A stretch of 1,500 nucleotides of DNA from a virus (IMGVR_UViG_2531839468_000020:1-1500); one strand, 5' to 3'. Positions 24 through 99 are shown, counted from the first letter of the stretch. The notes: generated by a model from the letters alone, not told the origin. Numbers and translations are program-made.

Positions 24-46
24 GACCTACGAAATTTTCGTAGGTC
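24..46 (+). terminator. Perfect 23-bp palindrome; candidate plus-strand intrinsic terminator or dimeric-protein binding site
   Basis: Seen in sequence: gacctacgaaa-t-tttcgtaggtc, with 11-bp arms that are exact reverse complements around one central T. As RNA it gives a 9-bp stem with a 5-nt AT loop. On the plus strand it is preceded by a T6 run and followed by tcttctttcc, which would fit termination of a convergent plus-strand transcript entering from before position 1. The minus-strand version is followed by an A-run, so it is not a minus-strand terminator. Confidence 0.35.
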
Positions 47-65
47 TCTTCTTTCCGCAAACCGA

Positions 66-85
66 TTCTTATCCCCAGATAAGAA
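66..85. repeat. Inverted repeat ttcttatc-ccca-gataagaa (8-bp arms, 4-nt spacer)
   Basis: Seen in sequence: perfect 8-bp reverse-complement arms at 66-73 and 78-85 in the non-coding region downstream of the DUF551-like gene. AT-rich stem. Function unknown; it could be an RNA hairpin or a protein-binding site. Confidence 0.3.
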
Positions 86-86
86 C

Positions 87-99
87 GGCGGCAACCGCC
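87..99 (-). terminator. Short GC hairpin (ggcgg-caa-ccgcc); weak candidate terminator for the minus-strand operon
   Basis: Seen in sequence: the minus-strand RNA GGCGG-UUG-CCGCC has a 5-bp GC stem and a 3-nt loop, followed by GUUCUUAUCU. It lies about 40 nt downstream of the DUF551 stop. The stem is short and the loop tight, so this is weak. Confidence 0.2.

Follow-up and report, generated by a model that had tools for sequence, protein, structure and literature searches.

The DNA segment analysed here, referred to as the window, is 1,500 nucleotides long and originates from a virus. Its minus strand carries part of the leftward early region of a lambdoid prophage, with genes that are orf63-like, code for a DksA/TraR zinc-finger protein, are ea22-like, and code for a DUF551 protein. 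Positions 834–1500 are approximately 96% identical to positions 30261–30928 of phage lambda. In this lambda-homologous part, between the orf63-like gene and a short ORF at positions 1193–1288, the minus strand contains a terminator-like hairpin at positions 1246–1264, AGGGAGCTACAGGCTCCTT, which is followed by TTTTATTGTT. The surroundings of the window were taken from contigs that encode its exact DUF551 protein, one of which (L014) holds the entire window. In these contigs, the DUF551 gene is followed by a gap of 138 base pairs, which corresponds to positions 1–138 of the window, and by a convergent toxin–antitoxin pair composed of an HTH_3 antitoxin of 106 residues and a RelE/HigB-type toxin of 123 residues. 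Beyond the toxin–antitoxin pair lie an AntA/P22_AR_C gene, xis, int, and then a pectinesterase gene, which appears to mark the neighborhood of the lambda attB site. Immediately before the start codon of the toxin gene, outside the window (L012, 11216–11240), there is a palindrome, AGTGTAATA caatg TATTACACT, that is probably the antitoxin operator of the RelE/HTH_3 module.

The stop codon of the antitoxin gene is on the plus strand and directly adjoins position 1 of the window from the outside. Positions 1–138 are thus the space between two convergent genes, and the plus strand is the strand of the toxin–antitoxin transcript. The initial annotation of the window, made from its sequence, had proposed a convergent plus-strand transcript and had pointed to the DNA upstream of position 1 as the place to look; the convergent toxin–antitoxin operon ends there, on the plus strand. 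All contigs that include the junction of the window are identical across it, and a megablast comparison of positions 1–140 with 5,426 complete E. coli genomes gave no match.

Three inverted repeats are located within the intergenic space, at the positions given by the initial annotation (Table 1). The two longer ones were recovered by a repeat finder, and the third was read directly in the sequence. The lengths of the arms were compared with those arising when the window was shuffled 1000 times with its dinucleotide composition preserved. Arms of at least 11 bases, scored with loops of up to 6 nucleotides, occurred in 0.3% of the shuffles (3/1000), and arms of at least 8 bases in 12%. Only the 23-base-pair palindrome exceeds chance and is statistically unusual; the 8-base-pair repeat is borderline and the 5-base-pair GC hairpin is unremarkable. 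The calculated energies of the RNA hairpins are −13.3 kcal/mol for positions 24–46, −6.1 kcal/mol for 66–85, and −7.0 kcal/mol for 87–99. When the RNA of both strands was folded, positions 1–138 were more stable than their shuffles, with z-scores of −5.3 for the plus strand and −3.8 for the minus strand. The region had been labeled 3′ non-coding, which is partly correct: it is intergenic but is built of decayed coding sequence, with a gene relic at positions 1–46 and a broken ORF at 69–137.

Table 1 Features of the region between the toxin–antitoxin pair and the DUF551 gene, in window coordinates.
Feature	Position	Strand	Description
Relic codons Q-K-N-G-A-E-I-E	1–23	−	22/24 nucleotides match L009 (cagaaaaacggcgcagaaatagaa); reading frame checked
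23-bp palindrome	24–34/36–46		Repeat finder: 11+1+11, 100% complementary; GACCTACGAAA T TTTCGTAGGTC
Palindrome as relic codons (E)-T-Y-E-N-F-V-G	24–46	− (reading)	Orphan of the family-conserved palindrome
Terminator-like unit	24–56	+	Consensus scan: 10-bp stem, 3-nt loop, tail TCTTCTTTCC
DUF551-module spacer	47–68	−	ggtttgcgg-aaagaagag aligns with ggtttgcgggaaaaggggag in L011 and L247
8-bp inverted repeat	66–73/78–85		Repeat finder: 100% complementary, 4-nt loop; TTCTTATC CCCA GATAAGAA
Decayed small hydrophobic ORF	69–137	−	Follows the DUF551 gene in relatives; TAA stop at 71–69
5-bp GC hairpin	87–99		GGCGG CAA CCGCC, read directly in the sequence
DUF551 gene	139–504	−	Pfam PF04448 on the identical protein; last intact leftward early gene before the junction

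Judged by where its similarities to other prophages end, region 1–138 is a patchwork of three modules. Homology breaks at positions ~1–2, 46/47, and 90/137, in agreement with the suggestion that the region marks a module junction. Relatives of the toxin–antitoxin module are 87–91% identical, and their homology breaks off at the stop codon of the antitoxin gene, corresponding to positions 1–2 of the window. For relatives of the DUF551 module, the match begins at position 137 or 91, and a gapped alignment extends it to position 47. The homology of the spacer stops at ...aagaagag, precisely at the edge of the palindrome. Between the spacer and the DUF551 gene, the relatives carry an intact small ORF of 26–28 codons that encodes MMNWPEAFTAVGVAIAVAFILYSLFRWG or MTWPEAFTTTGIAMAVALMVYSICRWG, is unannotated, and is conserved in several E. 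coli prophages (L245/L246 ~360–450, L011 ~2960–3047, L247 ~360–447). Its ATG overlaps the stop codon of the DUF551 gene (ATGA). The copy in the window is damaged by the deletion of one nucleotide after ATGATG and of 12 nucleotides near the 3′ end; it reads ..WPEVFSVVGIAMAVAAVLIWG* and has no in-frame ATG.

The two shorter hairpins belong to this decayed ORF. The 8-base-pair repeat spans its stop codon and sits at the 12-nucleotide deletion, and the 5-base-pair hairpin lies inside it, at the codons A-V-A-A, where the relatives have GCCGTGGCGCTG or a similar sequence. Both hairpins are absent from the homologous place in all four relatives, L011, L245, L246, and L247, and they are regarded here as by-products specific to this lineage and are assigned no role. 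The proposal that the three palindromes form one cluster with a common role is not borne out, because they reside on separate pieces of DNA and the second and third are missing from the relatives.

Read on the minus strand, positions 1–46 are very likely a 16-codon relic, ETYENFVGQKNGAEIE, of an Ant/KilA-type antirepressor N-domain gene (phrog_1726). The exact 23-mer of the palindrome occurs in ten IMG/VR contigs, in nine of which it is inside antirepressor-like ORFs of 240–350 amino acids and encodes E-T-Y-E-(I/N)-F-V-G. One 23-mer-bearing ORF matches phrog_1726 "anti-repressor" with an E-value of 1e-95. Among 185,579 species-representative genomes, the exact 23-mer is present in only two, those of Arsenophonus and Sodalis. 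The 24 nucleotides that follow the palindrome match the intact genes of both L009 and L008 at 22 positions. The homology of the relic ends after 16 codons, where the convergent antitoxin gene has its stop codon. Of the N-domain motifs RNNDF...DEL...YExFV...RESKAVRRS, those that would lie upstream and downstream of the relic are lacking both in the window and in the 20-kb locus. The window contains no intact N-domain ORF, and its copy is a relic and not a gene. A minus-strand ORF through the relic, starting from a TTG at approximately position 58, was judged unlikely to be genuine, since it has no homologues and would run antisense through the antitoxin gene. Just downstream of an intact antirepressor-like gene in L009, positions 3402–3491 match the Rfam family sRNA-Xcc1 with 64.8 bits, above the gathering score.

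Related prophages that carry the same toxin–antitoxin module (L020–L022) have an intact or truncated family member between the DUF551 gene and the module. This syntenic gene is on the strand of the DUF551 gene; the intact one is in PhiR12_3 and is labeled "Roi". The copy in the window is therefore what remains of a gene that resided at this place. In two complete E. coli genomes (L021, 4454–4723; L022, 5476–5745), the antirepressor-like gene is cut to its N-domain with the palindrome intact; it encodes 96 amino acids and is annotated as an incomplete pseudogene. These truncated genes resemble a step on the way to the decayed copy of the window. An intact antirepressor gene was probably once positioned between the DUF551 gene and the convergent toxin–antitoxin moron of this lambdoid prophage, and a deletion or recombination event would have removed all of it except for 16 codons centered on the palindrome, with one junction exactly at the base of the stem.

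The N-domain of the antirepressor family is about 100 residues long, is common to Ant1 and Ant2 of phage P1, and has no match in Pfam, NCBIfam, or the PDB. A tblastn search detects it in approximately 220 phage records, which include P1 and P7 Ant1/Ant2, Stx2a phages, APSE, and phages of Klebsiella, Salmonella, Erwinia, Acinetobacter, Pseudomonas, Vibrio, and Shewanella. The palindrome is located at the same seven codons in nearly all sampled members, from phages of Enterobacterales, Acinetobacter, Pseudomonas, Vibrio, and Shewanella. The relatives were collected by peptide patterns outside the palindrome, so that the samples are not conditioned on its presence. The first set, obtained with the patterns RNNDF and KDEL, includes 75 loci with 33 distinct sequences, all of which have perfect arms of 9–13 base pairs at the same codons. 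In the second set (pattern L[VI][GSA]MRESK), 61 of the 65 distinct sequences form 8 or more pairs with no more than one mismatch, and among distant phage homologues with 34–70% protein identity at least 8 pairs are formed in 17 of 19. By contrast, approximately 2% of other 60-nucleotide windows of the same genes reach at least 8 pairs. The initial annotation had advised a search for the palindrome elsewhere, and had argued that a unique and non-conserved palindrome would be simply a terminator. Instead, the palindrome is widespread and conserved as a coding-embedded element of antirepressor genes, and that argument fails.

The sequence of the stem differs among the members of the family. The variants include gaCCTACGAAAtTTTCGTAGGtc, which encodes TYEIFVG, ggGTTACGAAAtTTTCGTAACcc (GYEIFVT), gCACTACGAAAtTTTCGTAGTGc (HYEIFVV), TACTACGAAAcTTTCGTAGTA (YYETFVV), aTTTTACGAAAcTTTCGTAAAAt (FYETFVK), TACAAAATTTTTGTA (YKIFV), TACCAAAAAATGGTA (YQKMV), GACCTACACaaaaaGTGTAGGTC of the P1/APSE class (TYTKSVG), and the Pseudomonas forms GGGGTATGCAaaaaaTTGCACACCCC and AGGGGGTGCAaaaatATTACACCCCCT. 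On either side of the core, the encoded residues covary in pairs with reverse-complement codons: T/G, G/T, H/V, Y/V, and F/K. There is no apparent reason for this covariation at the level of the protein. In 85 distinct codon-anchored sequences, standard pairs occupy 89% of the cells, compared with 76% in shuffles and 26–46% when the partners are slid, and changes on both sides affect 8 of the 10 stem pairs, compared with a shuffle mean of 5.4. The covariation score is 0.346 versus 0.112 in shuffles and was reached by none of 500 shuffles, a control that ignores phylogeny; a separate covariation count on 31 sequences agrees with this result. The many distinct versions of the stem, together with the spread of hosts, make it unlikely that inheritance alone explains the covariation. 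The core codons are frozen, with tyrosine encoded by TAC in 99 of 99 sequences and valine by GTA in 96 of 99, whereas the codons flanking the core are near synonymous saturation. The compensatory changes in the stem and the reverse-complement covariation of residues indicate selection on the nucleic acid. In the intact family, the palindrome thus appears to be a selected hairpin-forming dyad that is perfect or nearly so, and the compensatory changes that keep it also alter the encoded amino acids.

The coding-embedded palindrome of antirepressor genes is apparently undescribed: Rfam 15 has no match at the palindrome in the window and four intact loci at E-values of up to 1, the detailed annotation of P1 contains no feature at this position, and a literature search for the core sequence gave no match. 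In P1 itself (L105, NC_005856, ~49140–49165), the ant1/ant2 palindrome is degenerate, ATTTTACACAAAAAGTGCAAAAT, with one A·C mismatch, and in the close relatives Ro157c2YLVW, APSE-7, JEP4, and Midgardsormr38 it is perfect. The Rtp-like Drexlerviridae phages phiA2-1 (L236) and IME253 (L239) carry the N-domain with the palindrome TTGACTACGAAAGTTTCGTAATCAA, which has one mismatch. These two phages are presumably virulent, and if so, the palindrome is not tied to the control of lysogeny. Mismatch types were considered as an indicator of the strand on which an RNA hairpin would form. All five internal mismatches of the first 31 sequences were A·C, the counterpart of G·U on the antisense strand, and seemed to point to that strand. 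T·T, G·T, and C·T appeared in the second set, after which no bias between G·U and A·C was left, and the approach was abandoned.

The initial annotation had seen in the symmetric, AT-rich center of the palindrome a possible site for a dimeric DNA-binding protein. Such an operator, bound by a phage regulator or an antirepressor-like protein and still active as an orphan, would account for the perfect 11+1+11 dyad and for the motif TAC-N9-GTA, which is nearly invariant across classes. Operators inside genes are of a known kind, and orphan copies of the palindrome tend to adjoin other antirepressor or regulator genes. However, the stem is free to change as long as complementarity is kept, and its inner pairs open into a five-nucleotide loop in the P1/APSE class. 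A stem that covaries freely and tolerates such opening fits a structure better than a recognition sequence. Furthermore, 42 distinct intact loci of ~3.2 kb contain no second copy or cluster of half-sites within 1.5 kb on either side of the intact genes, the palindrome is also single in the window and in the 20-kb prophage segment, and no promoter-like site adjoins it in the window. The palindrome of the toxin–antitoxin promoter described above is unrelated to it, and the 23-mer was rejected as the operator of the antitoxin. On this evidence an operator is improbable.

Several known sites resemble the palindrome in part. Coding-embedded cis elements, such as lac O2 and the Roi site of phage HK022, also overlap codons and constrain synonymous positions, and the host genes in the case of Roi are phage antirepressor-like regulators as well; the stem of the antirepressor palindrome differs from them in that it covaries, which points to a structure and not to a fixed recognition sequence. 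Roi reportedly binds a site inside its own gene, roi, in work attributed to Clerget and Boccard (1996). HK022 Roi (34655–35377) was considered as a counterpart, since the relative in PhiR12_3 is annotated with its name, and was rejected. Its N-terminal half is different and, from a reading of its sequence, seems to be Rha-like, and tblastn found no similarity to the N-domain of the antirepressor family anywhere in the HK022 genome. Palindromes bound by MqsA-type antitoxins have the form ACCT-N2-4-AGGT. The outer bases of the copy in the window are ACCT...AGGT, and the adjacent antitoxin has a weak, sub-threshold match to the MqsA-family HTH; however, the spacing in the window is 13 nucleotides instead of 2–4, and the outer bases differ in other members of the antirepressor family. 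An MqsA-type site was rejected because of the spacing; the palindrome in the toxin–antitoxin promoter is also unrelated. A TACGAA/TTCGTA resemblance to loxP was dismissed since the half-sites are oppositely arranged.

The same core also occurs in an unrelated system. Contigs of low-GC phages contain AATACGAAA(A/T)TTTCGTATT twice, 235 base pairs apart, at 3901/4136 in L143 and 9251/9486 in L148, and the pair is also present in L154, L164, L175, L185–L187, and L198. One copy lies between the TTGACA −35 element and the −10 element of a cro-like HTH gene, and the second is inside the 3′ coding end of the cro-like gene (NEYENFVF). This arrangement looks like an operator pair, and the copy at the cro-like promoter indicates that a sequence of this kind is able to function as an operator, a point in favor of that role for the antirepressor palindrome.

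Copies of the palindrome outside of antirepressor genes are not limited to the window. Among the matches listed in a scan with the 15-nucleotide core, long-armed intergenic copies are found in L001, L114, L205, L135, L231, L179, and L181. The orphans of L179 and L181 lie between a P22-type ant gene and a tailspike gene, contain a stop codon, and retain ~18 nucleotides of the gene upstream of the palindrome and ~15 nucleotides downstream of it. The homology of L001 does not extend beyond the palindrome ±3 nucleotides. Several orphan copies adjoin other antirepressor-like or regulator genes, and no flanking signal is shared among the contexts of the orphans. The recurrence of orphans implies either that the stem is a preferred endpoint of recombination or that it is kept for its own sake.

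The first of these alternatives leads to a scar at a module junction that has no present function. Template switching at a quasi-palindrome, a mechanism said to have been established by Ripley and by the Lovett laboratory, copies a change in one arm to the other arm or reverts it, and the bases of hairpins are preferred endpoints of illegitimate deletion; the two processes together would produce both the covariation and the orphans. The exact coincidence of one junction of the window with the base of the stem is what such deletions would leave, as are the narrow homology of L001 and the heterogeneous contexts of the orphans. The pairs of the stem are nearly all strictly Watson–Crick, with G·U in only 16 of 850 cells, as templated correction would give. 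Quasi-palindrome hotspots in E. coli thyA and T4 rII are comparable coding inverted repeats that are made complementary by templated mutation. However, they are mutational hotspots of the laboratory, whereas the antirepressor palindrome is fixed at one site throughout the family and survives the loss of the gene. The same seven codons are kept across homologues of 35–50% identity, in many host genera, and through full replacement of the stem; rare codons such as GTA are retained, and amino acids are forced to covary. Without a benefit, a palindrome in coding sequence should have disappeared from more than ~6% of lineages. Because the palindrome persists among such distant homologues and in spite of codon preference, neutral template switching is less likely, and the scar as a whole is regarded as an unlikely but serious explanation.

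The second alternative, that the palindrome functions autonomously as a hairpin or dyad within antirepressor N-domain genes and is retained alone after the loss of the gene, is a tentative possibility. Selection for it would override the preferences of the protein, and the copy in the window would be a working orphan from an undescribed class of phage cis-elements. If this is true, the element may act as a control point for the expression of antirepressors or as a joint for module exchange in phages of many Gammaproteobacteria.

The position of the orphan in the window offers it a role of another kind. The hairpin starts 23 nucleotides after the stop codon of the antitoxin gene on the plus strand, and five of its ten pairs are G–C. 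Its tail on the plus strand is UCUUCUUUCC, in which six of the first eight bases are U and the U-tract is interrupted by a C, and its tail on the minus strand is AGAAAAACGG, which has no T-run. T-run flanks had been proposed to suit termination of a plus-strand transcript; a T-rich tail is present on the plus strand only. The location of the hairpin behind the antitoxin stop codon and the restriction of the U-rich tail to the plus strand indicate that, of the roles considered in the window, one-way termination is the most likely. Moreover, a moron that opposes the pL operon needs a stop, while leftward transcription must pass, as a one-way terminator would allow. Predicted from its sequence and position, the orphan hairpin may be either a one-way intrinsic terminator or a hairpin that protects the 3′ end of the toxin–antitoxin transcript, an assignment held at a little under even odds. 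A terminator at this position would keep the toxin–antitoxin transcript from running antisense into the DUF551 and ea22 genes, and leftward transcription from pL would pass the hairpin. The interrupted U-tract and the AT-rich top of the stem argue against a strong terminator, and termination could be weak. The orphans of L001, L179, L181, and L114 have no T-run on either side. Therefore, the element does not in general possess terminator activity; the T-rich tail in the window is sequence of the neighboring module, acquired by juxtaposition.

The hairpin shares with the intrinsic terminators that close phage morons a stem-loop soon after a co-oriented stop codon, a U-rich tail on one strand, and a placement between convergent genes of a lambdoid prophage. 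It differs from them in that its stem is recycled from the coding sequence of another gene and its U-tract is interrupted, and its function as a terminator is a prediction. The retroregulatory element sib/tI of phage lambda is likewise a hairpin of the lambdoid early left arm, the effect of which depends on the transcript that reads it. However, sib is a longer RNase III substrate positioned beyond int, whereas the stem in the window has only 10–11 base pairs, is located upstream of xis and int, and originates from a gene fragment. An ordinary stand-alone terminator, or a chance palindrome without a history, would be in keeping with the match to the terminator consensus on the plus strand and with the location between convergent genes. 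It is nevertheless very improbable, because arms of this length are so rare in the shuffles, the 23-mer and 24 further bases are common to antirepressor genes, and relatives of the toxin–antitoxin module lack the palindrome.

The best overall explanation, with a probability of about 0.6, builds on the demonstrated anatomy of the region, identity of the relic, junctions, and covariation across the family: the palindrome is part of an antirepressor-gene relic, was selected within that gene family, and persists as an orphan hairpin for which one-way termination is the most likely, though not a firm, present role. What appeared to be a regulatory cluster becomes a record of prophage history, in which an antirepressor gene was deleted beside a toxin–antitoxin moron and left a piece that probably came to serve the moron as its terminator. 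In the intact genes, the seven-codon palindrome represents selection on the nucleic acid that overrides the protein sequence in phages of at least five host orders. Antirepressor genes govern the induction of prophages, including Stx phages. The dyad is open to direct testing by synonymous recoding. A functional palindrome would point to a so far unrecognized step in the control of antirepressor genes, and a non-functional one would illustrate how a palindrome can perpetuate itself in nature.
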